DNA of 64,000 nt, from the IMG/VR virus record IMGVR_UViG_3300028886_003672, positions 2,549 to 66,548 of that record; one strand, 5' to 3'. The stretch comes from a virus (Duplodnaviria; Caudoviricetes). The notes under the pieces were generated by a model. That model saw nothing but the letters and a program-made list of their open reading frames with translations. It was not told where the DNA came from and ran no database searches. The position numbers and the translations under genes were made by a program. Below are positions 38,284 to 63,460 of the stretch, one piece after another (position 1 is the first letter of the stretch; every line of letters starts with the position of its first letter).

Positions 38284-38398
38284 AACGGCTGGAATCCTTG
38301 TGTCCTGCGGGTTTGCAGGACTTTATTGCTTTTAAGACGAATTGTATAAAGATAAGAGTTAGCTAACGCCTATTTCCAGATAACGGGAGGAAGGGTCA

Positions 38399-39019
38399 AT
38401 GGGACTGTTTCAGAAGAAACAAGTTGTGCAGGTGAAGGTCGATCCTGCCATGATCGAAGCCCTAAAGGCATTCGTTGAACAGCAGAAGGCTCTTGATAAA
38501 GAAAAAAAAGAGAGTAGGCCACAAGGGAGTGGAATTCGTTACTCCCTTGCAGAACCTTCCTACTTCGGCGATACGATCCTTGACATGAAAAGGTTTATGA
38601 GCGATGCCCGTCAGGATACCGCCATGTTTGATTCGCCCGCTTTACAGAAGTCCTATCATGAATGGGAAAGAAAAGCTGCCACAAAAAAGACTTTCAGTTC
38701 GGAAGTCTTAAAAAAGCTGAATGAACTGCACATGAAGCCTGCGGAGTTTTACAAGGCTGTAGGTTTGGACAAACGAGTCTTTCATGCTTTGAAAAGCGAT
38801 TATCTTTATACGCCGTCGAAGGCAACAGCAATTCGTTGTTGCCTGGGGCTGCGACTTAAATATGAGGAGGCAATCGAACTTCTTAAATTGGCGGGATACA
38901 GCTTCTCTCCAAGTAATTCGAAGGAGCTTGTGATTCGTTTCTGCATGGAAAACGAAGTGTACGATCTTCCGAGCATCAATTATATGCTTTTGGCCATGGG
39001 CGAAGAACCGATGGCATAA
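38399..39019 (+). CDS. hypothetical protein with C-terminal HTH-like domain
   Basis: AEFYKAVGLDKRVF...LGLRL..EEAIELLKLAGYSFS. Confidence 0.6.
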   Translation: MGLFQKKQVVQVKVDPAMIEALKAFVEQQKALDKEKKESRPQGSGIRYSLAEPSYFGDTILDMKRFMSDARQDTAMFDSPALQKSYHEWERKAATKKTFSSEVLKKLNELHMKPAEFYKAVGLDKRVFHALKSDYLYTPSKATAIRCCLGLRLKYEEAIELLKLAGYSFSPSNSKELVIRFCMENEVYDLPSINYMLLAMGEEPMA

Positions 39020-39099
39020 AGTCGTTTCAGAATAGACCTTTTTTTCTTCGCAAAAGGTAAACTTCCTAACGATAAATCTTGTTTCGGGAGGGAGAGCAG

Positions 39100-41079
39100 A
39101 TGCCGAACTTTCTGGATAACTTTGGACTCGAGAGCTTCAACGAGGACGAAGATTCCTTGATGGGCTTGCTAGGACATGTGGTGAAGGAAGGTAAAGGAAT
39201 CAACGGATATTACGGGATTCCATATCTAAACACGCACCTGGGCGATGTTCAGGTGATTGCGCGGATAAAGCGCAACGATGAAGGCAATTATGAATGCTGC
39301 GGTTTTGATACGCACTGTAAGGGCAGGAGTGTTTGGGATGTTCGGATTGTAGACGAGCTGAATCCACTCGACGATGATCCCCTTTGCAAGCGGCTGTTCT
39401 TGAAATCTGTGGACGGAGATTGTCCTTTCATTGCCAATATCGTGAACGCCGATGTTCTTCCGAGCTTTTCCAAAAATGAAATCATCAAGCTTCAGATGAT
39501 TGCGTTCAGCGACAAAATCAATTTCTTTGAAAACGATGATGATTACAGAGCTACTGTCGATCCCGGACTTAACGGTGCGAAAATCACAATCGGTGATGAT
39601 ACCATTTTCCCTGCTGGTTTGTTTTCCAAAGATGAAAACCCCGCCGCCAAAGATATAGTACATATACATGGGACTGTTGATCAAGCGTTCTGGGGAAGGC
39701 TTGATCTGGGCCAGCCAGAAAATGAAGATTTACAGACTTTCATTATCTGCCGAGTAAAAACACACCAGTATGGGGACATTGAAATCGTTGAAAGCGCGGA
39801 TGCTATTGATCCGGACAACTCCAAGCATATTCACCCTGGCGCTATAGCGGATTGCCTAGCGTATCTCAGTGGCGATCCTGCCATTTTTGAGCTGGATGAG
39901 GGAATTGTTAAGAATGCAGAAAACAATCTGAAGCTGGTGGCATATACTCTGGAAAAAGGTGATCCAGAACGCCTTCGTTCGGTTTTGGCGGATGGCTTCG
40001 TGTATCATTCCGAGAATGCCAATAAGCATATCGAAAGCATCGATGAATATATCGAACTGGTGAAGTATATTCACAAGGAAGGCACCCCTTGCCAGGCTTA
40101 CCATGCGACTATTACAGAATATCAGGAAGGGAACCCAGAATATCCCGTTGGAACCAAATGTCTGGTTTTGAAGTACGAGGATGAAGAAGGCTACAACTCC
40201 ATCGTATTCATAGATCAGGACGAATCCGGGAACATTATACGCATTCTAATCAGCAAGGACGCTCGTTATCGCTTCAAGGTCGATCTTCCACCATCTGATT
40301 CAGAAGAAGTCAGGGATGTGTTCTCTGGCGATCAGCCGTCAACAGAAGAAGCTATTTTTGCGAGAGCCGATATCTTCAGAGTATTTTCCCGGAATACCAG
40401 CCTTGATTTTGTGCAAAAGACTCTGGCAAAAAATAAGGATCGATTCATCGAGGAACTTTCTCCCATACTGAATAAAGCAGAGATTGAAAAAAGCGATTTC
40501 GGTACTGCTTTCTTCAAAGGAGTTGAACTCTCTAAAGTCACAGAATATGACGATGCGGAAGTTCATGAAATCGGAGAACTGTTCTACACAGACGCGCTTC
40601 ACCATGTGAAAGGTGATAATCAGAAGGAAGTGTTCTCTGAAGCATTGCCATTCGTTATGACGCTTGGTTATCTGTATGAAGGCCGCGCAGATGATCACAG
40701 TCAGGAAGAACACGCAAAGTATCTCCGGATTGAAGAAATTAAGCATGCTTTTGCTGAACACATGATGAAGCATCGCGGTTACAGCGAGGAAGAAGCTGAA
40801 GTCGCTGTGCATGATTTCCCAGATCCGTACAGCAATCCATATCTCCGTGAGGAATTCATTGATACTGTCGAGGTTGATGGAATCGAGTATGAAAGAAACG
40901 CCGATTGTGTAGACCTTACAGTCTGTGGGATTGACAATGTCCCGAGGTTCTGCTTCTACACTCTTTACCGGGTTGATGATATTCCAAATCATAAAGTCGG
41001 TGAATACCGTGATGCCAGAAAACTATTCCAGACAGAAGATCTTGATCCGAACGACTTTCCATCTGAGGTTGAAGAGTAA
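39100..41079 (+). CDS. multidomain hypothetical protein (acidic; beta-rich N-domain, SnoaL-like middle region)
   Basis: Long ORF with RBS; N-domain resembles 43097..43906. Confidence 0.7.
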   Translation: MPNFLDNFGLESFNEDEDSLMGLLGHVVKEGKGINGYYGIPYLNTHLGDVQVIARIKRNDEGNYECCGFDTHCKGRSVWDVRIVDELNPLDDDPLCKRLFLKSVDGDCPFIANIVNADVLPSFSKNEIIKLQMIAFSDKINFFENDDDYRATVDPGLNGAKITIGDDTIFPAGLFSKDENPAAKDIVHIHGTVDQAFWGRLDLGQPENEDLQTFIICRVKTHQYGDIEIVESADAIDPDNSKHIHPGAIADCLAYLSGDPAIFELDEGIVKNAENNLKLVAYTLEKGDPERLRSVLADGFVYHSENANKHIESIDEYIELVKYIHKEGTPCQAYHATITEYQEGNPEYPVGTKCLVLKYEDEEGYNSIVFIDQDESGNIIRILISKDARYRFKVDLPPSDSEEVRDVFSGDQPSTEEAIFARADIFRVFSRNTSLDFVQKTLAKNKDRFIEELSPILNKAEIEKSDFGTAFFKGVELSKVTEYDDAEVHEIGELFYTDALHHVKGDNQKEVFSEALPFVMTLGYLYEGRADDHSQEEHAKYLRIEEIKHAFAEHMMKHRGYSEEEAEVAVHDFPDPYSNPYLREEFIDTVEVDGIEYERNADCVDLTVCGIDNVPRFCFYTLYRVDDIPNHKVGEYRDARKLFQTEDLDPNDFPSEVEE

Positions 41080-41381
41080 TGGATGCAAAGCACTACAATG
41101 AACTGATCGAGCTTTCTCAAGAGATCTATGATCAGGCGACGGATAAACTAACTAATTATTGCGCTGCAAAATACTGCGCTGTTGGCAACGACACGACTGA
41201 GCAACAGCTCGAAGATTACCTGTTTGTAGCGGAAGAGACCAGCGCATATCTTCTGGGCAATGCACTGGCGTTGTTGGCACCGGACTCGCAGGAGGCGGAG
41301 ATAAAATCGTTCGTGGATGATTTGCGTCGGGTAATAGTGTGTGCCGCAAAGAAACTGGGCAGCGACCAGAAGCCCAACTGA
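41079..41381 (+). CDS. hypothetical protein
   Basis: TAATG coupling to the upstream gene. Confidence 0.65.
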   Translation: MDAKHYNELIELSQEIYDQATDKLTNYCAAKYCAVGNDTTEQQLEDYLFVAEETSAYLLGNALALLAPDSQEAEIKSFVDDLRRVIVCAAKKLGSDQKPN

Positions 41382-41393
41382 ACGGAGCTTAAT

Positions 41394-41525
41394 ATGTGCG
41401 ATGAAAATGAAAGCATTCTGATAATAGTTGCTGAGGAAGCAGAAGAGTCCGGTGTGGATTATGCCGCAGAGTACTTGAAACAGACGGGCAAGGACTTTGA
41501 AACCGGCGAATATGTCACACAGTAA
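41394..41525 (+). CDS. small acidic ORF (43 aa) missing from the ORF track
   Basis: GGAG RBS; MCDENESILIIVAEEAEESGVDYAAEYLKQTGKDFETGEYVTQ*; fills the gap between its neighbours. Confidence 0.5.
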   Translation: MCDENESILIIVAEEAEESGVDYAAEYLKQTGKDFETGEYVTQ

Positions 41526-41536
41526 TGGAGGCTACC

Positions 41537-42046
41537 ATGGCTGCAGAAGAGGAAAAACGGAAGCATCGTTGCTGCTTTACCGGTCATCGTCCAGAGAAAT
41601 TGAATGCCTCCGAGTGTGATGTGAAACACTGGTTGGAGGAACAAATCGATCAGGCGATTGCGGACGGGTTTGTTACATTTATCAGCGGATGCGCCATGGG
41701 CGTTGATATCTGGGCAGGTCAGATTGTGCTGGAAAAGAGAAAACAGAATCCGGAGCTTCATCTTATTGCAGCAACACCATGGCCCGGATTTTCTCGGCGC
41801 TGGGGTGTCGATTGGCAACAGCAGTACAGTGATCTTTTGCAAGGCGCGGACTTAGTAGTACCGGTCTGTAATCATTATCACAGAGGTGTGTTTCAGCAAC
41901 GGAATGAGTGGATGGTTGATCGATCCAATCGGGTAATCGCTTACTACAATGGTTCCCCGGGAGGAACGCGAAACACGATAGAATATGCTGAAAGGAAAGG
42001 CGTAGAGTGTCGTGTCTTTAAAAATGAAATGGGAGAATTGACATGA
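41537..42046 (+). CDS. SLOG-family protein (YspA/DUF1273-like)
   Basis: CCFTGHRP, FISGCAMGVDIWA, FQQRNEWMVDRS, GGTRNTIEYA. Confidence 0.85.
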   Translation: MAAEEEKRKHRCCFTGHRPEKLNASECDVKHWLEEQIDQAIADGFVTFISGCAMGVDIWAGQIVLEKRKQNPELHLIAATPWPGFSRRWGVDWQQQYSDLLQGADLVVPVCNHYHRGVFQQRNEWMVDRSNRVIAYYNGSPGGTRNTIEYAERKGVECRVFKNEMGELT

Positions 42047-42456
42047 GCGAAAAGAAACCCTGGAAGTATTGCGTAGTCGGGAATATTGTTCGAGAACGCA
42101 TTGATGAGAACGGCATCTTCCGTCGTGGAACCGTTGCATTCAAGGGTGGAGCCAGAGTCTATATCGAGGGCAAAAACTATGATTATGATTACGTGAGAGA
42201 CGGAATCACGGTTCTTGGCTTGAATCGCTACAGACGCTATGTATATGAATTTATCCCCAAGGATCTAATTGAGAACGTTCGTTTCGCACGGACATACAAA
42301 CCGATAATTATGGATATGATGTATGAATATGAAGGTCATGACGGTTGGTGGGGAGATTCTGATGAGGACGGCTTGGATGCTAAACAGTTCGCTATCAACT
42401 GGCCAGAATTCCAGAAAATGAAAAGGCAACCTCATGCCGAGTCTGACCACAATTAA
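42043..42456 (+). CDS. hypothetical protein
   Basis: ATGA overlap with the SLOG gene. Confidence 0.65.
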   Translation: MSEKKPWKYCVVGNIVRERIDENGIFRRGTVAFKGGARVYIEGKNYDYDYVRDGITVLGLNRYRRYVYEFIPKDLIENVRFARTYKPIIMDMMYEYEGHDGWWGDSDEDGLDAKQFAINWPEFQKMKRQPHAESDHN

Positions 42457-42462
42457 GGGGAG

Positions 42463-43080
42463 ATGAAATACATGGGCTTATTCAGTAGATTCAAAAATAA
42501 AAGTTCGCAACAAAGCGAGGACATGATAATCACAAAGGCTTGTGGCATTGATCCTAAGAGGATAACCGTAGCAGATCACATTGTGTTCGGAATTGTCCAT
42601 TTCCCGATTGGAATTAAGAAACACAATGAGTATTTATCGACGAATAAGTATCTCATGATTGATGAATCGCTAATTACTTTCAAGTTGGCGAAATATCGAT
42701 TTGAACGGTATCTGTTTCTCCATCAATATTCCGATCATACGACCATGGAAACCGTTAAATCCCGTGTTCAGAAAGCATTGTCTGAACTGAATGGCGTTTC
42801 AATCGAAGCAGTCGTTGATCAATGGAGAAATCGTTCGAAACTGCTGAGTTTGGTTTATATCCGGGATGAGGAAAGACAGTACCCAGAATTCATAGAGAAC
42901 GCTGTCAGGATATTAAAGCGGGATTATGGGTGCGATGCTTATAAGGAAATAAGTGCTGACGATCCTGAAGAAATATGGGATTTCATGAAGGATTCAATGC
43001 TCCGGATAGAAGTGCAATCCTTTATATCAAACTACGACTCGACCATAAAGAATGCAGTTGAAAGCATCGATCTTTCATAG
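42463..43080 (+). CDS. hypothetical protein
   Basis: AT-rich ORF in an operon-like run. Confidence 0.6.
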   Translation: MKYMGLFSRFKNKSSQQSEDMIITKACGIDPKRITVADHIVFGIVHFPIGIKKHNEYLSTNKYLMIDESLITFKLAKYRFERYLFLHQYSDHTTMETVKSRVQKALSELNGVSIEAVVDQWRNRSKLLSLVYIRDEERQYPEFIENAVRILKRDYGCDAYKEISADDPEEIWDFMKDSMLRIEVQSFISNYDSTIKNAVESIDLS

Positions 43081-43096
43081 AGAGGGGGCTGAAGCC

Positions 43097-43906
43097 ATGC
43101 CATTACGTTTAGACAGTATTACCAATGACAGTCAGGATTCATCCTTGATTGCATGGATCCTGCAAAGCGGAACACAAGAGTGTGATTCAGCTTTCGCCAC
43201 ACCGGATAAAAAGTACATTCATATGAAAAGAAAGATTGTCGATCGTTCATCTGGCGATAAGATTGGAGAGTTAATCTTTACCTTGCAGAACACGGAAAAG
43301 CAGTTGGAAGTTCTGGACATTGATATTATTCTGGCAAACGAAACTGCTTCAAGAATCCGCTTTGAGACCTTAAAGGAACAGTCAGATTCCAATGAATACT
43401 ATGAAGTTTCTACCACTGATCAGGACGCTCATCTTATCATTGAAACGGTGAACAGATTCACAGAACCTAAAAAACTGATTGACACTGAGCGGGATGTTCA
43501 CATTTCAATGTTTCCCTTTCAGGTGAATCTATTTCAGGACATAGATGGATTCAACCAGTGGGCAGGGTTTTCTGCGCCGATTGAGGCCGGAGAAGGAACT
43601 GGATTATTTGTTCACGGCTTTTCAGAGCGTTTCTGTATGCCGGGCGGGCTGATGAGTGACAAAGAAAATGATAACGACTATTCGTTTGTAATTGGTAAGG
43701 TGGAATCATTCCGGGATGTTTCCCCAAACTTTGGAGATCACAAGATTCCCTTCGTATTAGCAATGGTGGACACCGCCCTCGGAGTGGTTCCTGTTGCAAT
43801 GGGGCGAGACGTGTTCGATTTGAAGGAGCTCAAAGTCGGATGTGTTATTGCCATGAATGCGGTCGTTAAGGCAGATGTAGCAGCTCCGGGAGTTTATAGC
43901 AGATAA
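43097..43906 (+). CDS. hypothetical protein, distant paralogue of the N-domain of 39100..41079
   Basis: Shared motif spacing (see findings). Confidence 0.65.
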   Translation: MPLRLDSITNDSQDSSLIAWILQSGTQECDSAFATPDKKYIHMKRKIVDRSSGDKIGELIFTLQNTEKQLEVLDIDIILANETASRIRFETLKEQSDSNEYYEVSTTDQDAHLIIETVNRFTEPKKLIDTERDVHISMFPFQVNLFQDIDGFNQWAGFSAPIEAGEGTGLFVHGFSERFCMPGGLMSDKENDNDYSFVIGKVESFRDVSPNFGDHKIPFVLAMVDTALGVVPVAMGRDVFDLKELKVGCVIAMNAVVKADVAAPGVYSR

Positions 43907-44036
43907 AAAGCATAGAGTTGTGCACAACAGTGCTAAGTACAAGCTAGCCATCATTCCTATAAGAATTAAACATACAAGTCCGTTGGTTCCTTTAGTAGAC
44001 TATATTAAATTTGCTTGAAAAAGCAGGTGATGTAAA

Positions 44037-45152
44037 ATGAAAGCAATTCAAACAGGCAGCAAATTCAAAATCTATGACGACAGCATCCGAAGCTATGATC
44101 AACTTCCAATTGCTACTTACGATATTGGTTATAACCAGCAGGAAGGCTGTTTCCTGATTTGCCGGAGCAATATTCGTGTAACTGAAAAGGCATATGGAGT
44201 ACATACGGAGAAGCTTGAAAAGGTGCTCTCTTCGTTCAAACGCTTTTCCAGAAGCCTGGGAGTTATCCTCAGTGGCGATAAAGGTATCGGGAAATCCCTT
44301 TTTGCCAAGATGATCTGCGAAGCTGCGGTTCATGAGGATTATCCCGTTATTCTGGTTGATGCGAACTATCCTGGACTCGCAAGATTTCTTGAGTCAATTA
44401 CCCAAGAATGTGTTGTGTTGTTTGATGAATTCGATAAGATATTTCGATCCAACGATGATAATGATGATCAGGCAGCGCTACTCAGTTTGTTTGACGGCAC
44501 GACTGGCGGCAAGAAATTATTCATCGTGACCTGCAACGAACTGTACAGTCTGAACAGCTATATTGTTAACAGGCCGGGCCGTTTTCACTATCATTTCCGC
44601 TTTGATTACCCGACACCGGAAGATATCCGGGAGTACCTTCACGACAAGCTTCCGGAAGAGCAACACGGAGAGATCGAGAAGGTCGTGGATTTTTCTAGGA
44701 AAACAAGCCTCAACTACGACTGTCTGAGGGCTATCGCTTTTGAATTGAATAGTGGTGCTGACTTTGCCGCTGCCGTCATTGATCTGAATATCATGACAAC
44801 GGAAGATGAGGAGTATGACGTATATCTTTATCTTGAAAACGGTGCCGTTCTGCAGCATCTGAGATTCAAAACAAATCTTTACGATGACGATGGCCTGATG
44901 GAGCGGATCTACTTCTACGATGAGGATGGGCATTATCAATTGACCGCCTACTGCAATAAGCGGTTAGCCAAGTATGACATGGTTAAGAACGCGATCTTGA
45001 TTTCCGCGAAGGGCATCAAGATCCAGACGAACTCCGATGACGACGATGATGATGACGACAATGAGAACAGCAGTAACAAATACAGTAAGAGCAAACCTTT
45101 GTACATGACGTTCAAAAAGCGTGCAATGAAGAACCTGCATTATTTGATTTGA
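44037..45152 (+). CDS. AAA+ ATPase
   Basis: Walker A GDKGIGKS, Walker [16 protein letters not shown] arginine finger. Confidence 0.9.
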
Positions 45153-45177
45153 GACGAAACAGCCAATGCACCCCCTC

Positions 45178-45212
45178 TGCACCCCCTTGCACCCTCAAGG
45201 GGGTGCATTTTT
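45178..45212 (+). terminator. strong intrinsic terminator
   Basis: Perfect 12-bp stem TGCACCCCCTTG / CAAGGGGGTGCA followed by T5; an extra TGCACCCCCT copy at 45167. Confidence 0.85.
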
Positions 45213-45250
45213 GTCGTTGTATCGGATCCTCGAATTAAGGATTCAACGTC

Positions 45251-45895
45251 ATGGAAAAGGAGAAGATGCTGTCCGTCGGCCGGGATCCGGAGACCTTCCT
45301 GAACAAGGGGATCCGGCTGCACTGCGACAAGGTGATCGACCGGAACGCCTATGTGGGCTTCCGGAAGGTCGGCTCCAGCGGCCTGTGCAACAATCCCAAC
45401 GTCACCCGCTCCTCGGCGGGGACCGGCGTCGGCGGGCAGACGACCTGGCGCAGCAAGACCCCGGACGAAATCCTGGACGACATCAACACCGCGATCTCCG
45501 CGGTATGGGCCGCGAACGACTGCTCCTCCGACGCGCTGCCGAACCATATCCTGATTCCTGTGGAACAGTTCGGCATGCTGGTGACGAGGAAGGTATCGGA
45601 CGACTCCGAACGGTCCATCCTGACGTATGTGCTGGAGAACAACATCGCGACCCGCCAGGGACGCGAGCTGATCATCTCCCCGTGCAAATGGTGCGGCGGC
45701 ATCGGGACGGATTCCTCCGACCGGATGGTCGTCTACCAGAACCAGGTGGACCGGGTCTGCTTCAACCTGACCCAACCCCTGCGCCGGATGGAGACGGAAT
45801 ACGCGGAGATGCGCATCAAGATCCCGTACATCGCGCAGTTCTCCGAAGTGCGGTTTCTGTATCCTTCGACTATAAGATACATGGACGGAATCTGA
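45251..45895 (+). pseudogene. DUF2184-family major capsid protein, N-terminally truncated
   Basis: GLCNNPNV, WRSKTPDEILDDIN, PNHILIP, SILTYVLENN, YMDGI* match the C-terminal two-thirds of the family; in-frame stop 15 nt upstream of the ATG. Confidence 0.75.
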
Positions 45896-45908
45896 GGAGG
45901 GAGAAAAC

Positions 45909-46220
45909 ATGCGTATACTGTCCCGCGTCTGCGCCGAGTTCCATGACAAAACCGGCGCAGTGCTTTTTACAGTTCATCCTGCCGACCGGTGCGTCTTCCT
46001 GGACGCTCCGGACAGCATCCGGCAGGATCCGCTGTTCCATATGCTGCTGAACGATGGCTCCCTGGAACTTCCGACAACGAGGGAGAAACAGAAGCAGCTG
46101 GAAAACGACCCGATGAAAAAAACCGGAAAGACGGGAAGCGCGAAGGAAGAGCCGGCAGAAACGGCTGAAATGCCCGCGCCGAAGGAAGCGGACGCTTCCG
46201 GCGCGAAGGCGAAGAAATGA
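45909..46220 (+). CDS. phage head-region hypothetical protein
   Basis: Post-capsid position; AP..I..DPLF..L..DGS motif. Confidence 0.6.
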   Translation: MRILSRVCAEFHDKTGAVLFTVHPADRCVFLDAPDSIRQDPLFHMLLNDGSLELPTTREKQKQLENDPMKKTGKTGSAKEEPAETAEMPAPKEADASGAKAKK

Positions 46221-46627
46221 GCGCGTTGACTCCCGAGTCTTTCCTGGCTTTTTATCCCCGGTTCTCCTTCTTTTCCCGGGGCGTTGTCCTGCCCGAGTAC
46301 ATCCGGCAGGCCAACGCCCGATTCGGGGATTTCGGGGAGGACACGGAGGAGGCAAGGCGGCTATTCACGGCGCATCAGCTGACACTGTATGCGGTCGGAA
46401 TGCCGCCCGGGGATGCTGAACCCGCACCGGCGGCGATTGCAGCTGCCGGCCGCGGCGCAACGCAGCAGGTTTCCTCCAAAAAGGTCGGGGAGGTTTCCGT
46501 AACCTATGCGGAGACCTCCCCGGGTGATTCCGTTTCCACCGGACTGGGTGACCTGAAGGAAACCGTGTACGGGCGGCAACTGCTGAGCCTGATCCGGATC
46601 CATGGCTTTGCACGATATATATCATGA
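46217..46627 (+). CDS. DUF4054-family head-tail adaptor
   Basis: FLAFYPRF, LFTAHQLTL, SKKVGEVSVTY, TVYGRQL. Confidence 0.8.
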   Translation: MSALTPESFLAFYPRFSFFSRGVVLPEYIRQANARFGDFGEDTEEARRLFTAHQLTLYAVGMPPGDAEPAPAAIAAAGRGATQQVSSKKVGEVSVTYAETSPGDSVSTGLGDLKETVYGRQLLSLIRIHGFARYIS

Positions 46628-46657
46628 TTGACGTTCATTCTTGCATGATGTTATACT
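46628..46657 (+). promoter_or_regulatory. promoter of the inserted membrane-protein gene
   Basis: TTGACG-18 bp-TATACT with TG extension. Confidence 0.6.
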
Positions 46658-46702
46658 TTCTTCAAAAGACAATAAAATTTCATATTGAAGGGAGTGCTTT
46701 TT

Positions 46703-47260
46703 GTGCAGGAAAAGGTTGCAGCATTTATTAGCAAATATGAGGATGAACAGAAAAAAAAGGAAGCAAAGTACCGTGAAGAAGTAATTTCTGCAGCAGGGCT
46801 TATTTCTGATGAGGCGGATTTCGTGGAAACGACTTTAGCAGATTACAATACATGGCATTATAACAATCCATCAATGTGCAAAATAGAAGACGGTAAGTAT
46901 TATGTTAAAAAAACTATGCCACTAAGTCTCACAGAAGAAGAATTTGCAGCTGTGGAAAATGCTATGCCAAGAGATAAGCTGACTGAAATTAGGGCAAAGA
47001 TTGATGGCATATCCACCGAAAAAGAAGGGAAAAGCTGGGCAGGAGGATTCCTGACGGTTATTGCAGGGATTCTTTGGATTGGAGGATTAATTATCGCGAT
47101 TCTCGGGGCAAATGTAGAAAATGGTTGGCGTACAGAATTCAACTTCGAAATATTTATGTCGATTTTCATTATTTATTTCATAAGCGGTTGCTTTGCGCTA
47201 TGTGCAGCAGAACTGTTCAAGAAGCTTCAAGAAATCATAAATCTCCTGAAAAGGAAATGA
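46703..47260 (+). CDS. inserted AT-rich membrane protein (2 C-terminal TM helices)
   Basis: Hydrophobic segments GFLTVIAGILWIGGLIIAILG and IFMSIFIIYFISGCFAL; composition contrasts with neighbours. Confidence 0.75.
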   Translation: MQEKVAAFISKYEDEQKKKEAKYREEVISAAGLISDEADFVETTLADYNTWHYNNPSMCKIEDGKYYVKKTMPLSLTEEEFAAVENAMPRDKLTEIRAKIDGISTEKEGKSWAGGFLTVIAGILWIGGLIIAILGANVENGWRTEFNFEIFMSIFIIYFISGCFALCAAELFKKLQEIINLLKRK

Positions 47261-47338
47261 TTTTTTCTGCGATTATTATTTCATGAAGCCCCGGAAGCCC
47301 TCGCGCAGCGTCTCCGGGCCCTCAAAAAACTGAAATCC

Positions 47339-47770
47339 ATGAACGTAAAAGTCGGTCTGCCCGCGTCCGCGGGAGACCGGCTTCGTTTCATTCTCGCTGT
47401 GCAGGAGCACGGCTCACCGATGATGCGCATCCCGTCCCGGCCGGTCATCCGGCCCGCGCTGGCGAAGCCGGAGACCCGGTCCGCCATGGCCGCGGAAATG
47501 AAGAAGGTCGTGCAGGCCGCCTGGGAAGGGAACGACGACGCGGCCCGAAGCGCCCTGGAGGCTGCCGGACAGGCCGGCGCGGACGGGATCCGGGCGTATA
47601 TCGACGCCGGGATCCCGCCGCCCAACAGCCCGGCCACGGTAAACGGCGGGTGGATCTATAACCGGGCGGCGAAGAAAGGCGTGTATATCCCCGGAAAGGG
47701 ATTCAACAAGCCCCTGTTCGACACAGGGGCTTTGTATAAAGCGTTTGATTATGAGATTGAGGGCGGGTAA
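47339..47770 (+). CDS. neck/tail-completion protein (true start probably upstream)
   Basis: VKVGLP, AVQEHGSP...IPSRPVIRP, PPNSPATV, KPLFDTG. Confidence 0.75.
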   Translation: MNVKVGLPASAGDRLRFILAVQEHGSPMMRIPSRPVIRPALAKPETRSAMAAEMKKVVQAAWEGNDDAARSALEAAGQAGADGIRAYIDAGIPPPNSPATVNGGWIYNRAAKKGVYIPGKGFNKPLFDTGALYKAFDYEIEGG

Positions 47771-47824
47771 TCAATGACTGCCGGCGGCGGATATTACGTC
47801 GATTAAAGCTGTTGCCGGTTGAAT

Positions 47825-48346
47825 TCAGATATGCTTTTCAAGCAGCACAAGATCAATTCCGGGGATACCGTTAAAATCCGTCGGGACAATCGATATCTCC
47901 TGATATCCAAGCTGGCGGTACATTCTCCGGGCAGCCTGGTTTTTTGCGTTTGTATCGATTCTCAGCTCCGGCCATCCGTGTTCAGCCGCGTACTGTTCAT
48001 AAAAGCGCACAAAGGCTGTTCCGTATCCTTTGCCGGCGGCGTACGGGGAAATGACCAGGGTATGGAGGACGCAGACCTGATCACCAGGCACACTGTGTTT
48101 CCACGGAGCGCTGTGATATACATCGACCTGGATCTGATTGATGAGTGCGGTTCCCAGAATACAGCCGCCGTCCTCCAGGACAAAAAGATCCCCCCGTTCC
48201 AGCGCTTTTTCAGCTGTTTCCCGAACCGGATAGATCTTCCTGATCCATCCGGTTGTACATTTTCCTTCTTCTTCGGCGGTATGGATTTCATCATAAATCC
48301 GGACAACGCTGTTCAGATCTGTCCCGGCTGCTTTTCTGATCGTCAT
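47825..48346 (-). CDS. GNAT acetyltransferase (inserted, antisense)
   Basis: LVISPYAAGKGYG, LRIDTNAKNQAARRMYRQLGY; own TGaTATAAT -10 at 48398-48390. Confidence 0.9.
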   Translation of the reverse strand: MTIRKAAGTDLNSVVRIYDEIHTAEEEGKCTTGWIRKIYPVRETAEKALERGDLFVLEDGGCILGTALINQIQVDVYHSAPWKHSVPGDQVCVLHTLVISPYAAGKGYGTAFVRFYEQYAAEHGWPELRIDTNAKNQAARRMYRQLGYQEISIVPTDFNGIPGIDLVLLEKHI

Positions 48347-48426
48347 AACAGGATCCTGCTTTCTTCCGGGTCGTTTCCCGGTACTTTTGATTATATCAGA
48401 TACCCTCGAAAAGGAGCAGTTTTTTC

Positions 48427-48789
48427 ATGGATATTTCTGCGGTTCTGACAGATCCTGAACTGGGCTTTACCGCCTTCTCCGTGCTGCGGACAACATACCG
48501 CCTGCAGGACGGGATTCCGGTTCCATCGGAGGAGACGCTGCCGGCATCCGGTTGTGTCCATCCCGGGACTCCGGAGATGGTCCAGCTGCTGCCGGAGGAG
48601 GAACGGCATGAGGAGTTCATTTCGGTTTATACTGACTTTGCCCTGAACCTCGGGGAAAACGGCGGGGGAGAAACGTATAGCACGCCGGACCGGATCCTCT
48701 GGAACGGGGAGACCTGGCGAGTGGTACGGGTTCGGGACTGGTCCATGTTCGGGTATCATCAGGGGCTGGCGGTGAAGATGCATGAATGA
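48427..48789 (+). CDS. head-closure/adaptor protein
   Basis: MDISAVLTDPELG..F.V.R, DRILWNGETWRV; synteny. Confidence 0.7.
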   Translation: MDISAVLTDPELGFTAFSVLRTTYRLQDGIPVPSEETLPASGCVHPGTPEMVQLLPEEERHEEFISVYTDFALNLGENGGGETYSTPDRILWNGETWRVVRVRDWSMFGYHQGLAVKMHE

Positions 48790-49324
48790 AACGATCTACC
48801 GGGCACTCTGCGCCTGCTTGGGGCTGCAGTCTTCCTCCATGCAGGCGCCTGTCCTGATCCGCGAAGCGTACCGTGAACCGGAGAACGCGCCCCGGCCGCC
48901 CCGGAGCGCGGATGTGGTTTATTACTCCATTGCGCCGGATCCCGCCGCCCGGGAAGCGCCTCCTGCATATATGGAGGAGAATGCTTTCCGGGATTCCCAT
49001 ATTCCGGCGGTTTCTCTCTTTTCCGCATGGACCCTGACTGTGGTCTGCTACGGTCCGCATGCCCTCAGCAACGCCCGGAAGATCCGGGCCTTCCTGTATG
49101 TGGATGGTCCGGGATTCCCGCGGAGCATATTGCGAAAAGCCGGGATCCGGCCGGTGCCGGACCCGCCGGAACCGATGCTGCTGCATGAGCCGGAAGGATC
49201 CCTCTGGCGGACGCGGGCAGACCTGACGGTCTCCCTGCGTGCGGAGGAAAAGGAAACGCACCCCGTGCAAAGGGGTGCGGTCTCTGTTCCACCTGTGATA
49301 AGTATCAGTACAGATGAGCGTTAG
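48782..49324 (+). CDS. neck/tail terminator protein
   Basis: VVCYGP.A..NA..IR, W..RADLTV; sits before the sheath gene. Confidence 0.65.
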   Translation: MNETIYRALCACLGLQSSSMQAPVLIREAYREPENAPRPPRSADVVYYSIAPDPAAREAPPAYMEENAFRDSHIPAVSLFSAWTLTVVCYGPHALSNARKIRAFLYVDGPGFPRSILRKAGIRPVPDPPEPMLLHEPEGSLWRTRADLTVSLRAEEKETHPVQRGAVSVPPVISISTDER

Positions 49325-49731
49325 GATTTAAGAGCGCCCTTGAAACTTCCACAATTTATACATGCCTTTGATGTGAAAGGGTTAACTTTTCCACAACTTG
49401 GACAGGTCCAGAAATTCTTTGGCTTGACATTGACAATTCGAGCAGGAGCTGGCTTTTCTTTATGCTCGTTTTCAAGCAAGGAACGTATTTGTTGGTTGTC
49501 TTCTACAAGCTGGCCAAATCCATACAGGACAACAGATAAAATCCAGGAAGCAACAGAACCGATGATCATAATAAGAAGGCCTGTGATGAGCGCGGTGGTT
49601 TGCTCAACTGAGCTATAGGAGTTGGAAGCTGCCATCATCAGAATAATACCATAGATTACTGATGCGATGATGCCAACCCAGCATACAACTTTTGCTAGGG
49701 ATTTAATCTTTGCTCCAACGTTATTGAACAT
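49321..49731 (-). CDS. inserted membrane protein with C-terminal zinc ribbon (antisense)
   Basis: NVGAKIKSLA..two TM helices..GFGQLVE; CPSCG...CINCG. Confidence 0.8.
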   Translation of the reverse strand: MFNNVGAKIKSLAKVVCWVGIIASVIYGIILMMAASNSYSSVEQTTALITGLLIMIIGSVASWILSVVLYGFGQLVEDNQQIRSLLENEHKEKPAPARIVNVKPKNFWTCPSCGKVNPFTSKACINCGSFKGALKS

Positions 49732-49829
49732 ACGGGAACCTCCTTATTCGGTTTTGTTGATACAAGCTTTTTCGACAATGATCTTATATTTTCCTTTTTC
49801 AGAATAAAGGCGGAAAGGACAGATTTTTC

Positions 49830-50945
49830 ATGCTTTCCATCAATACCATTGCTCGCGTTTTGGTTAATGTCCAGCGTTCCGCAACGCAGCCAACTTCCTT
49901 TGATACCGGCCTGCTGCTGGTAAAGGATGATTCCTTTGCCGCTTCCAGGCGCCTGAAGTCCTATGCCAGTTCCGCGGAAGCGGCCGCCGGGCTGACCGCG
50001 GACGGCTTTGACGATTCCACGGAAGCATACAAGGCCGCGCAGAAATACTTCGCGGCTTCCCCGGCGCCCGGGCGGCTGCTGGTGTCCTGCTATCCGGCGG
50101 CCGAGAGCCCGGTGCAGGCACTGGACGCCGTGCTGGAAAGGACGCCGGATTTCTACGGTGTTGCCCTGGCGGACGCCCGGACGGACGCGGAACTGCTGGC
50201 GCTGGATACGCACATCGCCGGACTGGAGAAGCCGGCGATGCTGTTCCTGGCGCTGACGGGGACGCCCGCGGAGGTGACGGCGGCCGACAGCTTGCTGGAT
50301 CAACTTCATACCGCCGGCTCCCGGCGGGTGATTGCCGTCTGTGCTTCCGCACTGTCGGACGCGGCGGCGGTGATGGGCACGGCCATGGGCCTGCAGGCGG
50401 CGCATGCCGCTTCCGCCTTCTCCCTGTGCTACAAACCCGTCGGGGGCATGCAGCCGTCCTCCCTGACGCAGGATCAGGCGGACGCCATTCAGGCACTGGG
50501 CGGAAATGTGTATGTGACCCGGGGATATTCCCATATCCTGCTGGAAAAAGGAAGCACCCCGTCGGGCTGGCGCTACGACGAGGTGCTGTACCTGGATATG
50601 ATCGCCGAGGATCTGCAGAACGCGGCGGTCTCCCTGCTGGCGGAGAACCCGGACCGGCTGCCGCAGACGGATGACGCGTCCGCGCAGTTCATGAACGCGT
50701 TCAGTTCAGTGCTGATAGGCTATACGAACCGGGGGATCCTGGCCACGGCCCCATGGAGGGGTTCCGCCGTCGGCTGCTTCTCCGCCGGGGACTATATCGA
50801 GAACGGGTTTGCCCTGTGGGCGGACAGCTACGACAACCAGAGCGAAGCGGACCGGGCGGCACACAGGGCGGTCCCGATCCAGTGCGCACTGACATTGGCG
50901 GGCAGCTTGGAATCCGTTGTGATTACGGTGAACGTGCGGGTATAA
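49830..50945 (+). CDS. contractile tail sheath protein (DUF3383 family)
   Basis: I..VLVNV, YKAAQKYF..SPAP, FSLCYK..GG, YDEVLYLD, PQTD, GSLESV.I.VNV. Confidence 0.88.
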   Translation: MLSINTIARVLVNVQRSATQPTSFDTGLLLVKDDSFAASRRLKSYASSAEAAAGLTADGFDDSTEAYKAAQKYFAASPAPGRLLVSCYPAAESPVQALDAVLERTPDFYGVALADARTDAELLALDTHIAGLEKPAMLFLALTGTPAEVTAADSLLDQLHTAGSRRVIAVCASALSDAAAVMGTAMGLQAAHAASAFSLCYKPVGGMQPSSLTQDQADAIQALGGNVYVTRGYSHILLEKGSTPSGWRYDEVLYLDMIAEDLQNAAVSLLAENPDRLPQTDDASAQFMNAFSSVLIGYTNRGILATAPWRGSAVGCFSAGDYIENGFALWADSYDNQSEADRAAHRAVPIQCALTLAGSLESVVITVNVRV

Positions 50946-50982
50946 GGGAAGTAAATGGCTTTCTACTGTTTGGAACTGAATC

Positions 50983-51291
50983 TCAGCATTTTTCCCTGCA
51001 ATGTTCGGCTATCCATTCATTCAACAATTTTCGCGGGATGAGAATTTTCTTTCCAATGCGAAGCGTTGGAAAATCTGCCCGGTGTATCAGTTGGTAAGCA
51101 GATGTTCGAGAAATGGATAATTCATCAGCTAGATCATTGATGGTAAGCGTCTGCTTTTGAGGTTGCCCTTCGCTGTGCGGGAGAAAGGTTATAACTGGTG
51201 CGCTTTCTTCTTCGGCAAGTCTGTCTGCCAGGTCGAGAAGTTGACGGGCTATAGAGTTAAGTTCCTTTGCTATTTCCTGATTTTTCCCCAT
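50983..51291 (-). CDS. excisionase-type (HTH_17) DNA-binding protein (inserted, antisense)
   Basis: LTINDLADELSISRTSAYQLI...FPTLRIGKKILIPR..L.EW. Confidence 0.8.
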   Translation of the reverse strand: MGKNQEIAKELNSIARQLLDLADRLAEEESAPVITFLPHSEGQPQKQTLTINDLADELSISRTSAYQLIHRADFPTLRIGKKILIPRKLLNEWIAEHCREKC

Positions 51292-51394
51292 GCTTTTGAC
51301 CTCTTTTCAAAAATAAAAAATTTGGTTGTTATTGTAACTCCTGATGGATTTATCTTATCAGGAACAGCCTGATTGAAAAAGGAGATCATGCTTT

Positions 51395-51829
51395 ATGGCG
51401 TATAACGTTTACTCTCTCCCGGACTGCCGGACGGTGCTGTACCATCCGGATGTGGGCACGGCGAACCTGCATCAGTGCGGCCACGGAAAAATCACGGTCT
51501 CCGCGGCGGGGGACCTGACGTCCCATACCATGACCGCGGACGGGTATGTGGTGGTGAACCGGCTGAAGAGTACCAGCGGGACGGTCACCATCGAGGTCCC
51601 GCAGAATTCGGTCGGGGACTGGTTCCTGCGCCGGTGGGCAAGGTGGCAGAAAAACAGTAAGGATCCCTCGCGCATCGCGCTCGGGACCCTGACGATCCAG
51701 GACTCAGCCGGAGGTTTTTCCATTGTCTGCACCGGGGTGACGCTGCAGAAGGTGCCGGACCGGGTGTTTGACCGGACGGCCACCAACCTAGTCTATACCC
51801 TGCTGGCCGCGACGATTGCGGAGCAATGA
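51395..51829 (+). CDS. tail tube protein (DUF3277-like)
   Basis: YNVYSL.D, G.ITVS, SGTVTIEVPQNS, KVPDR.F. Confidence 0.8.
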   Translation: MAYNVYSLPDCRTVLYHPDVGTANLHQCGHGKITVSAAGDLTSHTMTADGYVVVNRLKSTSGTVTIEVPQNSVGDWFLRRWARWQKNSKDPSRIALGTLTIQDSAGGFSIVCTGVTLQKVPDRVFDRTATNLVYTLLAATIAEQ

Positions 51830-51966
51830 AAAGAGGTTCATGATTCTCATGAATTAAGTAAGGGCTTATAATCGTATAGGAAATGCACTTCAATCAGCCA
51901 GATTGAAGCGCATTAATGCGGGGAACATATTTTTTTAGGAAAAGTTAGTTGGCTTACAGCAATTAG

Positions 51967-52794
51967 TCAATTGAACAAACTCGACTTCAGATCGATCCAC
52001 ATGGCTGGCCGAATCATACTATATATACGATCATAGTCTAGCTCAGCCCGGGAACCATCATAATCTACATTCATAGCAGAGTTGTGATATTCTCCAGGAG
52101 AACGGAGCCACCACATTCCTGCTTCTTTATTATCGAGATTTTGATATGGTTCGTATCCATGCCAGGCGTTGTGTTCAATTGCATAATCTGTTGGAGCGCA
52201 CATACGACTAATATTGTTGGCAAAGTACAGATCGTAAGCTTCGTGGTAACTCAATAAAAACAAGTGATCTTCTGTATCATTGCTACTGGTTGCATTATAG
52301 TACATATATCCTTGGATATCTGCATTGCTCACATATGACAATAGAATGGCATTTTTCTCTTTTTCCGTAAAAGCCATATCAAAGAATAATTCGTTAAGCC
52401 ATTTTCTGATCATGCTATCTTCCCAAGTTATGTCTTTTTCTGTAAAGGGATTAAAGGCCATAGCATCTAGACCATACCGGCTGATTAATAAGCTTTTTTC
52501 TCCTTTTGTATCAAGGACTATCCATTCGATCATTTCTTTGCCGTTATCTTCATCAGTGTCTTGTTCATATGAACCGAAGGAAACTATATTTCCTATTTTC
52601 TTGAAAGGAGTTGAGTCGATTTTTTTCTGTGATTCACTATCACGATTAACATTGCGCTTTATTAATTCCGCCTGTATTTTTTCTATTTCTGCTAATAACT
52701 CATCATCAGTCAGCGAAGAGTAATCTACGGCATGTGAAAAAATTGGAATACAAATAATTATACAAACAAGCATGTAAATCAGGGGCTTTTTCAT
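51967..52794 (-). CDS. secreted DUF6273-like protein (inserted, antisense, AT-rich)
   Basis: Signal peptide; FGSYEQD, IEWIVL, SLLISRYGLD, W..S.IRKWLN..F, LFLLS, WWLRSPG, IRPAMWI. Confidence 0.8.
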   Translation of the reverse strand: MKKPLIYMLVCIIICIPIFSHAVDYSSLTDDELLAEIEKIQAELIKRNVNRDSESQKKIDSTPFKKIGNIVSFGSYEQDTDEDNGKEMIEWIVLDTKGEKSLLISRYGLDAMAFNPFTEKDITWEDSMIRKWLNELFFDMAFTEKEKNAILLSYVSNADIQGYMYYNATSSNDTEDHLFLLSYHEAYDLYFANNISRMCAPTDYAIEHNAWHGYEPYQNLDNKEAGMWWLRSPGEYHNSAMNVDYDGSRAELDYDRIYSMIRPAMWIDLKSSLFN

Positions 52795-52880
52795 TAGTAT
52801 TAGTTCCTCCTTCTGATTTGATCACAGTTTACTTTTATTAATTATACCATATCCGAAGAAAAAGATATATGAGGTGCCGT

Positions 52881-53273
52881 ATGCGTGAAATTGAAAAAAC
52901 CATTTCCATCCCCGTGGACGGAAAGCCCTCAGACTTTCGGCTGACGAAGCTGGACGCCTTTTCCGGAGCGTCCTTGCTGCGGATGCTGTCCGGGATGCCG
53001 AAGGATCCTGGGGATGATTCCGTCATGGGTTTCATCACTTCTCTTTCCGAAACGGATCTCCGGTCTCTCATGATCACCTGTCTGCAGCACTGCGAAGTGC
53101 TGCTGCCGGCAGGCTGGATGCCGGTGATGACCCGGGGAGAATGGACATATCCGGAGCTGGAGCATGATACCGCGGTCTGCCTGAAGCTGACGATCGAGGA
53201 GGTGCTCTGGACGCTGGAAGGTTTTTTCGGCGGGGGAGGCTCGACCTCCCTGCCAGAGATCCCGGGTTCGTGA
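52881..53273 (+). CDS. tail assembly chaperone
   Basis: After the tube gene; ends LEGFFGG at a slippery T-run. Confidence 0.75.
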   Translation: MREIEKTISIPVDGKPSDFRLTKLDAFSGASLLRMLSGMPKDPGDDSVMGFITSLSETDLRSLMITCLQHCEVLLPAGWMPVMTRGEWTYPELEHDTAVCLKLTIEEVLWTLEGFFGGGGSTSLPEIPGS

Positions 53274-60457: not shown

Positions 60458-61786
60458 ATGAGGGAAAGGATCACGGGGCTGTTCATCCCGGCGGAGTGCC
60501 TGCCGGGGATGGACGGATACACCAACGCGGCGGCGGGGCTCGGGGAAGCGTCCCCGCTGACCGCCGCGGCGACCTTCGTGCGGAGCGGACTGAGCCGGGA
60601 CACCGAAAAGCTGACGGCGGCGTACCGGGGGAACTACATCGCGAAGCGGATCATCGACGGGCCCAGCGAGGACGCGACGCGGGAATGGTACACGCTGAGC
60701 GTGCCCTCGATGGGCGAGGAGGACCTGCGGCAGCTGAAAAAGCTGGAGGCGAAGCACAGCGTGAAGCAGGAGATCACGGACGCGATCCGGTGGGCCCGGC
60801 TGTACGGAGGGAGCATCGCCATCATGATCACGTACGGGGACCAGGACCGGATGGACACCCGGCTGGATCCGAAGCGCCTGCGGCCGGGATGCTTCATGGG
60901 GCTACTGGTGGTGGACATGACGCAGGAGATCACGCCGAGCCTGGAGATGGAGGACGACCTGGACGACCCGGAATACGGCCTGCCGGAATACTACGAGGTA
61001 TCCGTCGCCGGGAAGCAGGGGGAGAACCGGCGGATGAAGATCCACCATTCGCGGGTGCTGCGCTTCACGGGGCGGGAGCTGCCGCGGGAGGAGATGATCC
61101 GGAACGATTACTGGGGCGCGAGCGAACTGGAGCACGTATGGGACGCGCTGATCCGGCACGACTCCGGCAGCGAGAATACCGCCAGGATGACGTACATGAG
61201 CAACCTGGTGACGCTGAAGATGGGGAGCCTGGGGGCGGACCTGGCGTACGGATCGGACCGGACGAAGGAAAGCGCGATCCGCGCCGTGGAGGAAGAAAAC
61301 CGGCTGCGGAGCAGCTATGGTACGCAGCTGCTGAGCGAGGGGGACTCGATGGAGACCCACCCGTACAACTTCGGCGGGCTGGCGGAGATCCTGGATATCT
61401 TCATGATGGACGTGGCCGGGGCGGCGGAGATGCCGTGCACGAAGATCTTCGGGCGGTCGCCACAGGGGATGAACGCCACGGGACGGTCGGACGAGAAGAA
61501 CTACAGCGACATGGTGGGCCGTCTGCAGGAGCGGATCCTGCGCCCGGCACTGGAAAAGCTGCTGCCGGTGATGGCGGTGAGCTGCTGGGGAATGATCCCG
61601 GAGGACATGGAGATCCGCTTCAATCCCCTGGTGACGATGAGTCCGGGGGAGCGGGCGGAACTGGCCCGGCAGGCGGCAGAGGAGATCCGCATCCTGCTGG
61701 AATGCGGGGTGATCACGGCGGAAGAGGCGCGGGAAAAGATCAAAGCGCCGGAGACCGGCGGAAACGGCTGGGGGACGATCCTGTGA
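60458..61786 (+). CDS. portal protein (DUF1073 family)
   Basis: YRGNYIAKRIID, WARLYGGS, IHHSRVLRF, WGASEL, AGAAEMP.TKIFGRSPQGMNATG.SD..NY. Confidence 0.9.
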   Translation: MRERITGLFIPAECLPGMDGYTNAAAGLGEASPLTAAATFVRSGLSRDTEKLTAAYRGNYIAKRIIDGPSEDATREWYTLSVPSMGEEDLRQLKKLEAKHSVKQEITDAIRWARLYGGSIAIMITYGDQDRMDTRLDPKRLRPGCFMGLLVVDMTQEITPSLEMEDDLDDPEYGLPEYYEVSVAGKQGENRRMKIHHSRVLRFTGRELPREEMIRNDYWGASELEHVWDALIRHDSGSENTARMTYMSNLVTLKMGSLGADLAYGSDRTKESAIRAVEEENRLRSSYGTQLLSEGDSMETHPYNFGGLAEILDIFMMDVAGAAEMPCTKIFGRSPQGMNATGRSDEKNYSDMVGRLQERILRPALEKLLPVMAVSCWGMIPEDMEIRFNPLVTMSPGERAELARQAAEEIRILLECGVITAEEAREKIKAPETGGNGWGTIL

Positions 61787-63033: not shown

Positions 63034-63049
63034 GAAAGGAGAGCGAGGC

Positions 63050-63349
63050 ATGAACAGGAACGATAAAAAGCAGGGAAACCGGATCCGGGAGCAGACGGGA
63101 CAGGAATACCTGGACCTGCTGCCCGGGGCGATGGACGCCCTGAAGGACATCATCGGCAATCCGGAGAGCAACCCGGCCGCCCGGGTGCAGGCGATCGGCC
63201 TGTTGATGGACCGCGGACTGGGGAAACCGGAGGAGACCATCCGGATCCGGCATATGGAGGACAACATGGAACAGGCGCAGGCGCGGATGGAAGAGATCTT
63301 CGCGCTGGTGCGGGAGAAAAAGGACGGGGAGCCGGGGGCGGAAGGCTGA
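63050..63349 (+). CDS. small protein, possibly terminase small subunit-like
   Basis: ARVQAIGLLMDRGLGKP motif; adjacent to terL. Confidence 0.4.
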   Translation: MNRNDKKQGNRIREQTGQEYLDLLPGAMDALKDIIGNPESNPAARVQAIGLLMDRGLGKPEETIRIRHMEDNMEQAQARMEEIFALVREKKDGEPGAEG

Positions 63350-63352
63350 AAA

Positions 63353-63412: not shown

Positions 63413-63460
63413 TGAAGTTTCCCTCGAAAAAAGTTTCCCTCAGAAAGGAGGAAAAAGCGA

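Follow-up and report, generated by a model that had tools for sequence, protein, structure and literature searches.

Mostly antisense cargo genes at recurrent slots in the late operon of a probable temperate myophage family of rumen Clostridia

Why the late genes of a tailed phage should be separated by single genes of unrelated kinds is the question raised by a 64,000-nt stretch of viral DNA, hereafter the window (positions 2,549 to 66,548 of IMGVR_UViG_3300028886_003672, a 66.5-kb provirus record of IMG/VR). Five of the six neck-to-chaperone boundaries of a myophage operon in this window are filled by an inserted gene, which in four of the five cases is oriented against the direction of the operon. 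We put at about three in four the probability that window positions 45.2-59.6 kb represent the late operon (head completion, neck, tail, and lysis) of temperate myophages that form a small family in rumen Clostridia, an operon that carries morons at recurrent slots between its cistrons and has thereby become noncontiguous. The inserts are morons by definition; what is unusual is their density and the rule followed by their orientation.

Gene identities in the window were obtained from the listing of open reading frames (ORFs) together with Pfam and PHROG searches, and all eleven genes of the cluster turned out as the initial annotation had described them, with structural genes alternating with single, AT-richer foreign genes at five boundaries. 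The structural genes have GC contents of 0.58-0.65 (0.68-0.87 at third codon positions, GC3), the inserts of 0.37-0.51 (GC3 0.35-0.54). The first filled boundary follows the backbone gene for a DUF4054/phrog_302 virion structural protein (46217..46627, plus strand), recognized by profile matches. One base after its stop codon begins a sigma70-like promoter match on the plus strand (TTGACG-18-TATACT with a TG; 46628..46657), in agreement with the promoter of its own that had been proposed for insert 1. This sense gene (46685..47260, plus strand, GC 0.39) encodes a 191-aa protein of no family with two C-terminal transmembrane (TM) helices and has no terminator downstream. It is followed by an in-frame open 5' coding remnant of the neck gene (47261..47338, plus strand), in which the first ~7 codons are replaced and the native ATG reads CTG (47267). 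The gene for Neck1, a tail completion protein (phrog_222; 47339..47770, plus strand), is without its native first 24 codons and ribosome binding site (RBS); seven relatives start 24 codons upstream, at an ATG. Insert 2 (47825..48346, minus strand) encodes a GNAT acetyltransferase and, at GC 0.51, is the least AT-rich of the five; an extended -10 element, TGATATAAT, was recognized by eye in the 80-nt spacer that separates it from the next structural gene.

That gene codes for the full-length phrog_939 head/neck protein (48427..48789, plus strand; RBS AAAGGAG) and is overlapped by the backbone gene for the tail/neck terminator protein (PF23961; 48782..49324, plus strand), whose last ~4 codons are rewritten at the junction with insert 3 and which is 3 codons longer than in relatives. 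Insert 3 (49321..49731, minus strand, GC 0.42, RBS AAGGAGG) encodes a membrane protein with a C-terminal zinc ribbon, and the reported 4-nt overlap of the convergent stop codons at 49321-49324 is correct. A GC-rich hairpin with a T-rich tail on the minus strand lies in the 3' end of the terminator-protein gene (49257..49279; conserved in the related loci L037, L038, and L040) and, judged by its sequence, could serve as a transcript end for insert 3. The full-length DUF3383 tail sheath gene (49830..50945, plus strand) is separated by insert 4 (50983..51291, minus strand, GC 0.45), which encodes a 102-aa HTH_17 protein of the MerR/excisionase type, from the full-length tail tube gene (KPP10_Orf10; 51395..51829, plus strand; RBS AAAGGAG). 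Insert 5 (51967..52794, minus strand, GC 0.37, RBS GAAGGAGG) encodes a secreted DUF6273 protein of 275 aa, with an extended -10 element seen by eye, TGGTATAAT, in the 74-nt spacer before the tail assembly chaperone gene (52881..53273, plus strand); relatives use this second ATG of the chaperone gene, the other being at 52869. The statement that the genes have kept good RBSs holds for phrog_939, sheath, tube, and chaperone and for four of the five inserts, all of which are preceded by sequences resembling a Shine-Dalgarno (SD) motif. The ATG of the neck gene at 47339 lacks one.

In the ESM Atlas, inserts 1 and 3 matched unnamed Bacillota clusters only, IMG/VR scans with inserts 3 and 5 returned no relatives, and insert 5 gave just two weak matches to cultured phages. 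PADLOC recognized no defence system among the five inserts and the upstream cargo, the sole match being a weak one of the HTH protein encoded by insert 4 to mad1, and Rfam had no match in window positions 38-64 kb or in five relatives.

The relatives of the window element indicate that such insertions recur. A sheath search of species-representative genomes returned 14 loci, at 63-92% identity, in metagenome-assembled genomes (MAGs) of rumen Clostridia, and a metagenome profile scan detected 184 relatives, 80 of which were retrieved; the resulting family set of 94 loci consists of MAG or metagenome contigs from independent studies and assemblers, some of them 55-362 kb long. When the structural proteins of the window were mapped on these loci, the structural gene order was identical across all 94, and spacers were either tiny or hundreds to thousands of bases long. 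If a slot is counted as occupied when the gap reaches at least 250 nt, the boundary between DUF4054 and neck is occupied in 12 of 23 loci, that between neck and phrog_939 in 13 of 27, phrog_939 and terminator in 9 of 43, terminator and sheath in 15 of 62, sheath and tube in 34 of 69, tube and chaperone in 19 of 42, chaperone and tape measure in 9 of 19, and tape measure and Dit in 3 of 15; occupancy of the baseplate boundaries is rare. Each boundary from DUF4054 to Dit is thus filled in some relatives, with an occupancy of 21-52% per boundary in the neck-to-tape-measure region. All 12 loci that span the six neck-to-chaperone boundaries have at least one of them filled, and the window has the highest number with five. 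For each of the five window slots, relatives exist in which the flanking genes are adjacent (spacers of 0-70 nt). In such empty slots the RBS of the next gene directly follows the stop codon, and in filled slots an RBS is always present just 5' of the next ATG. An SD remnant was also considered as a mark of every left junction and was rejected on inspection. The filled gaps have a lower GC content than their flanks in 107 of 108 cases (mean 48.5% vs 61.1%). The comparison of orthologous clusters that the initial annotation had called for therefore came out as it had anticipated, with fixed slots and varying cargo across ~95 clusters.

The cargo is highly diverse. It amounts to 113 non-redundant genes at 70% identity, each supported by an SD motif, and a Pfam search of 97 cargo proteins yielded 60 families. 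Among these are GNAT acetyltransferases (6), BspA-type leucine-rich repeat (LRR) proteins, NUDIX and LysM proteins, Gp49/HigB with an HTH partner, ECF-type sigma factors, and LuxS; further cargo includes a Na/Ca exchanger, a phosphatidylserine-decarboxylase-like protein, TipAS, HU, an acyltransferase, and many unnamed secreted proteins. In the relatives, the cargo thus consists mostly of GNAT, NUDIX, surface, and metabolic genes of a host-type accessory nature, and Gp49/HigB-type genes account for two of the 97 proteins. Only one of the five window inserts has a homolog in the 94 loci, namely the DUF6273 gene, at 39% identity and in another slot and the other orientation.

The closest relative is L037. 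Its sheath is 94% identical to that of the window at the amino acid level and its backbone DNA 88-92% identical, and it contains none of the DNA inserted in the window. It has inserts of its own at the same boundaries, and the homology to the window stops and starts within a few bases of the structural ORFs. The synonymous divergence (dS) between the two loci is ~0.26-0.44 for neck1, phrog_939, terminator, sheath, tube, and chaperone and ~0.66-1.0 for the capsid gene, the adjacent gene g103, and DUF4054, and the ratio of nonsynonymous to synonymous divergence (dN/dS) of the structural genes is 0.04-0.39. These values show that the structural backbone is under purifying selection and that the cargo is replaced faster than synonymous changes accumulate in the backbone. 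The long residence of the inserts that had been proposed is contradicted by this comparison: because the nearest relative (dS of the sheath gene ~0.26) shares none of the five inserts and fills the same slots with other genes, turnover and not long residence is indicated. The related claim of precise insertion at gene boundaries stands for the sheath gene, where homology to L037 extends from 1 nt before the ATG to 2 nt past the stop codon, and fails at the neck and terminator junctions, which are imprecise. Likewise, the sheath, tube, phrog_939, and chaperone ORFs are intact as stated, which cannot be said of the neck gene with its lost start, the terminator gene with its rewritten end, and the capsid gene, which is split.

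The orientation of the cargo follows a clear bias. Cargo ORFs were called only if an SD motif preceded the start, and 95 of the 113 non-redundant genes (84%; p = 8e-14) are antisense to the operon, with the same bias in every well-sampled slot. Since this proportion is found in complete-looking relatives, antisense placement is tolerated or favoured and not an accident of decay. The start of an antisense cargo gene is separated from the next structural ATG by a median spacer of 108 nt, and 28 of 71 such spacers have a sigma70-like consensus match with a promoter-like score of at least 10 on the cargo strand, compared with 0 of 71 on the sense strand. Canonical terminators at the left junctions (n=93) are oriented in the cargo (minus) direction in 19 cases and in the sense (plus) direction in 4. 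In many gaps, the upstream stop codon is immediately followed by an A-run and a GC hairpin, a combination that is terminator-like for the minus strand only.

A mechanism that would account for these features starts from slots that can each take up one self-contained gene of higher AT content. Such a gene brings its own RBS, in most cases also a sigma70-type promoter, and in some a terminator. Such cassettes would arrive by illegitimate or short-homology recombination among the related prophage copies of a genome and with other DNA, and selection would then keep only those joints that spare the flanking ORF and its RBS. The antisense orientation may be favoured because the cargo could be expressed in the lysogen without read-through into the late genes, and a cargo terminator acting in one direction would not stop a single long late transcript. 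After induction, late transcription might shut the cargo off by interference. One compact relative encodes a CI/LexA-type repressor, a primase-helicase, and a small sigma70-region-4-like protein directly upstream of the packaging genes; this arrangement would fit a single late promoter.

How the cargo moves is partly visible from cassettes found in more than one slot. A ~300-nt cassette with a small XRE-type HTH gene occupies the terminator-sheath slot of L107 and the sheath-tube slot of five other loci (~80% identity), and a ~330-nt cassette is shared by the phrog_939-terminator slot of L023 and the tube-chaperone slot of L027 (~90% identity). On the left, both cassettes directly abut the upstream stop codon. 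Where homologous cargo was found in different slots, it was mostly too diverged for cassette ends to be recognized; these two cassettes are similar enough. The second cassette (L023 3938-4297; L027 11703-12033) lies on the sense strand and has a TATAAT box and a 32-codon ORF (MRITFHIGRFTVTI...) but no Rfam match. In three MAGs, moreover, paralogous copies within the same MAG have the same arms around unrelated cargo, comprising ~50-60 nt after the stop codon and ~55-75 nt before the next ATG. Thus L022, L024, and L031 share arms between sheath and tube that enclose a GNAT, an HTH-TM, and a metallo-beta-lactamase-fold gene, and shared arms with different cargo also occur in L030 and L033 between neck and phrog_939 and in L025 and L026 between phrog_939 and terminator. 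The tube gene is present six times in each of two MAGs, G001 and G005 (the genomes of L024 and L027; 3.3 and 4.3 Mb), on several long contigs, which reflects either a large number of related elements in a single genome or the binning of mixed strains. With several element copies per genome, recombination partners would be at hand.

A sequence mark common to the junctions was not detected. No direct or inverted repeats are shared by the five window junctions, and no k-mer is common to most junctions of the family, so that the conserved site at cassette ends which characterizes integrons was not found. The best motif, AACTTCCGG, occurs within 70 nt past the upstream stop codon in 12 of 127 gaps (~1.8 expected) and in three slots; some of these gaps share an arm, so that the independent cases are fewer. 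As (T)AACTTCCGG it was seen 7-35 nt after the upstream stop in L022, L024, L025, L030-L032, L037, L038, L051, L052, and L065. It is absent from right junctions and may be the remnant of a common cassette end. Period-7 tandem arrays (TTATGAA, TGCATTA, CTGAATT; 3-4 copies) were observed at junctions of L084, L094, L102, L103, and L112-L115, members of a more distant clade, where they lie directly past stop codons or before RBSs in empty as well as filled slots.

The capsid gene of the window has a history of its own. Its C-terminal two thirds only are present (45251..45895, plus strand; PF09950, profile positions 40-251 of 251; 319-341 aa in relatives), and the ~105 N-terminal codons that are found in 11 relatives occur nowhere in the window. 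A 294-aa ORF at 45166-46050 was considered as the capsid gene and rejected because it is off-frame. The fragment is joined to the interrupting element at a 12-bp perfect inverted repeat preceded by repeated TGCACCCC motifs (45178..45207), and L029 and L067 have the same truncation and the same junction hairpin. In the window (45160-45207) and in L029 as well, three copies of TGCACCCC are followed by its inverted copy; the hairpin at 49257-49279 in the terminator-protein gene (GCACCCC...GGGGTGC) resembles this repeat. Two serine recombinases homologous to those of the window abut the truncation in L029, and the missing N-terminal part (residues 7-128) is encoded on another contig of the same genome, directly 3' of a portal gene. 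Because the truncation abuts recombinases in L029 and the other half is located elsewhere in that genome, the gene has been split by an integrated serine-recombinase element. The split falls at ~codon 105-110, and the loci concerned are window 45178-45895, L029 3080-3862, and L132 8750-12263. The interrupting element spans at least positions 27998-45207 of the window, and its last gene, which is low in GC, encodes an AAA ATPase (phrog_2376, E 1e-107; 44037..45152, plus strand, GC 0.44) and lies outside the cluster of inserts. The element may comprise the entire siphophage, in which case one prophage would be nested in a gene of another, and the split could be a reversible switch. Between the capsid fragment and the DUF4054 gene lies a small head/neck gene of the backbone (103 aa; 45909..46220, plus strand) that is conserved across loci. 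Given the split capsid gene and the lost neck start codon, the window copy probably cannot function as a phage in its present state, unless the interrupting element is excised.

In the wider window, two phage-like regions can be distinguished. A siphophage region (1-21.7 kb) is followed by LRR and ankyrin genes, three large serine recombinases near the late operon, and other low-GC genes, and the myophage late operon extends from 45.2 kb through baseplate and lysin genes, with the portal gene next. The BspA-type LRR and ankyrin-repeat genes (22233-26341, GC 37-40%) lie 3' of the siphophage lysis genes; BspA-type LRR genes are also found as cargo in the myophage slots of relatives. Portal, a 414-aa terminase-like gene, and a 179-aa gene are arranged in this order after the lysis genes in L030 (19256-21083) and equally in the window (60458-64000). 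Two copies in another MAG (L126 896-4084) have the opposite order (179, 414, portal), upstream of the capsid gene. Tandem or segmental duplications of tube or tube plus chaperone, with cargo between the copies, were seen in L037 (9417-16595) and L122 (8819-10037), one such case being on a 362-kb contig, and in L031 (1-7898) a duplication with cargo between its copies spans the region from a sheath fragment to the tape measure. The backbone GC content of 59-65% exceeds that of host DNA sampled far from the elements (48-58%; L120, L121, L123, L124), and the cargo mean is 48.5%.

The mobile cassettes and the shared arms allow a more far-reaching reading, which we regard as rather unlikely. According to it the late operon would be a multi-slot cargo rack, in which promoter-gene-terminator cassettes are exchanged between slots and prophage copies by specific recombination and a strictly antisense orientation couples all of the cargo to the switch between lysogeny and lysis; slot arms, AACTTCCGG-type ends, and heptamer arrays are candidates for the recombining sequences. 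If true, the operon would be the counterpart of an integron on a phage, and transcriptional interference would serve as its inherent off switch. A dedicated platform of this kind, integron-like and acting at cassette ends or slot arms, was also weighed as an explanation in its own right and is unlikely. The same ~300-nt cassettes in different slots with their left ends flush with the stop codon, identical arms of 50-70 nt around unrelated cargo in three genomes, the excess of AACTTCCGG, the heptamer arrays beside some junctions, and the three large serine recombinases nearby in the window would all be expected of such a platform. However, no repeat or motif unites either the five window junctions or most junctions of the family, the serine recombinases are associated with the split capsid gene and not with the slots, no serine recombinase was found among ten genes scanned beside one compact relative, and the junctions at the neck start and the terminator end are ragged.

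The truncated capsid gene and the neck gene without a start would also suit an old domesticated or decaying prophage remnant, similar to a tailocin or a gene transfer agent (GTA), in which neutral insertions pile up over a long stay in the chromosome and the cargo is kept by the host and not by the phage. The unusual position of the packaging genes after lysis, partial duplications and deletions in L024, L031, L033, and L037, and a backbone GC content above that of the host point in the same direction. We nevertheless consider this origin improbable, as complete-looking relatives with full-length capsid and portal genes, in one case also with repressor and replication genes, fill the same slots. 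Tailocins have no capsid or packaging genes, and the window contains a capsid fragment and a portal gene, its relatives full capsid, portal, and terminase-like genes. The low dN/dS of the structural genes, the wholly different cargo of close relatives, which speaks for quick gain and loss instead of accumulation, and an antisense share of 84%, not expected from neutral accumulation, are equally at odds with a remnant, and the capsid truncation is a clean split by an integrated element, the other half of the gene being present elsewhere in a relative's genome. An assembly chimera, which the initial annotation had named as the finding that would overturn it, would consist of low-GC foreign fragments mis-joined into a high-GC phage contig. 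The GC steps are indeed sharp, and numerous relatives lie on short metagenome contigs whose ends are close to conserved genes. Yet the joints are situated at stop codons and RBSs with open frames on both sides, and independent assemblies show the same boundary insertions, the architecture being repeated in ~95 contigs that include those of 55-362 kb. An artefact is therefore extremely improbable.

Several points still weigh against morons at recurrent slots of a temperate phage operon. The damaged capsid and neck genes may mean that the window copy is simply decaying, and strain mixtures and fragmented assemblies among the MAGs and metagenome contigs may inflate copy numbers. ORF calling in the gaps was heuristic; it missed the GNAT gene of the window and miscalled the strand, so that the orientation bias is, if anything, understated. 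Promoters and terminators were recognized by their match to a consensus, and on the promoter measure the spacers of the window reach only 7-9. A canonical terminator accompanies only ~20% of the antisense cargo, and terminator-like sites are found on some sense-strand cargo too, so that the argument from polarity is not clean.

Morons of temperate phages, a concept of Hendrix and Juhala, are exemplified by bor and lom of lambda and by the morons of HK97 and HK022. The inserts described here resemble them as extra genes between genes that are adjacent in relatives, with putative expression signals of their own, a differing base composition, and cargo of the host-fitness type. They differ from classic morons in that five of six consecutive boundaries are filled, 84% of the cargo is antisense, the same cassette can be found in more than one slot, and slot arms persist around different cargo. 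The term is used here as in PMC2784084 and PMC7067206. A noncontiguous operon has been described in Staphylococcus aureus phage 80alpha, where the nested antisense genes tha/ith make lysogenic and lytic expression mutually exclusive (PMC11087260). The suggestion of the initial annotation that antisense units would silence the operon agrees, by analogy, with these staphylococcal operons. The four minus-strand genes nested between plus-strand late genes in the window are a similar arrangement. In 80alpha, however, the experimentally demonstrated case concerns a single regulatory pair within the lysogeny module, whereas the window has four unrelated cargo genes in a late structural operon, recognized from sequence.

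Fixed positions between conserved phage genes with fast-varying cargo are also known from other systems. Rousset et al. reportedly described hotspots for cargo and defence genes in P2-like phages and P4-like satellites in 2022, and anti-CRISPR loci sit inside the structural operons of Mu-like Pseudomonas phages. These resemble the slots of the present family in position and variability, but number one or two per genome instead of about ten, and the window slots are not a known defence hotspot. No close cultured phage was found; the nearest is Agathobaculum phage AB434P2 (OP172633.1), which has a DUF3383 sheath (26% identity), a similar tube (32%), and the same order of capsid, neck, sheath, tube, and chaperone. 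Its structural genes lie on one strand with spacers of 1-25 nt and no inserted genes, and this uninterrupted operon is the normal state against which the window family stands out. Literature searches found no description of such a multi-slot antisense pattern. New here are the number and occupancy of the slots, the antisense rule, the cassettes shared between slots, and the kept slot arms.

Morons are a route by which temperate phages deliver fitness genes to their hosts, and they are usually described singly. With some ten slots available, a repertoire of more than 100 different cargo genes, and multiple copies in each genome, the family offers a natural data set for two questions: how densely packed phage operons acquire new genes, and what makes the orientation of these genes important. 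In model phages, the 84% antisense rule could be put to the test as a concrete prediction. The family is abundant in rumen metagenomes, with its 184 relatives, and may influence the phenotypes of rumen bacteria through cargo such as GNAT acetyltransferases, LRR and LysM surface proteins, LuxS, and an acyltransferase.

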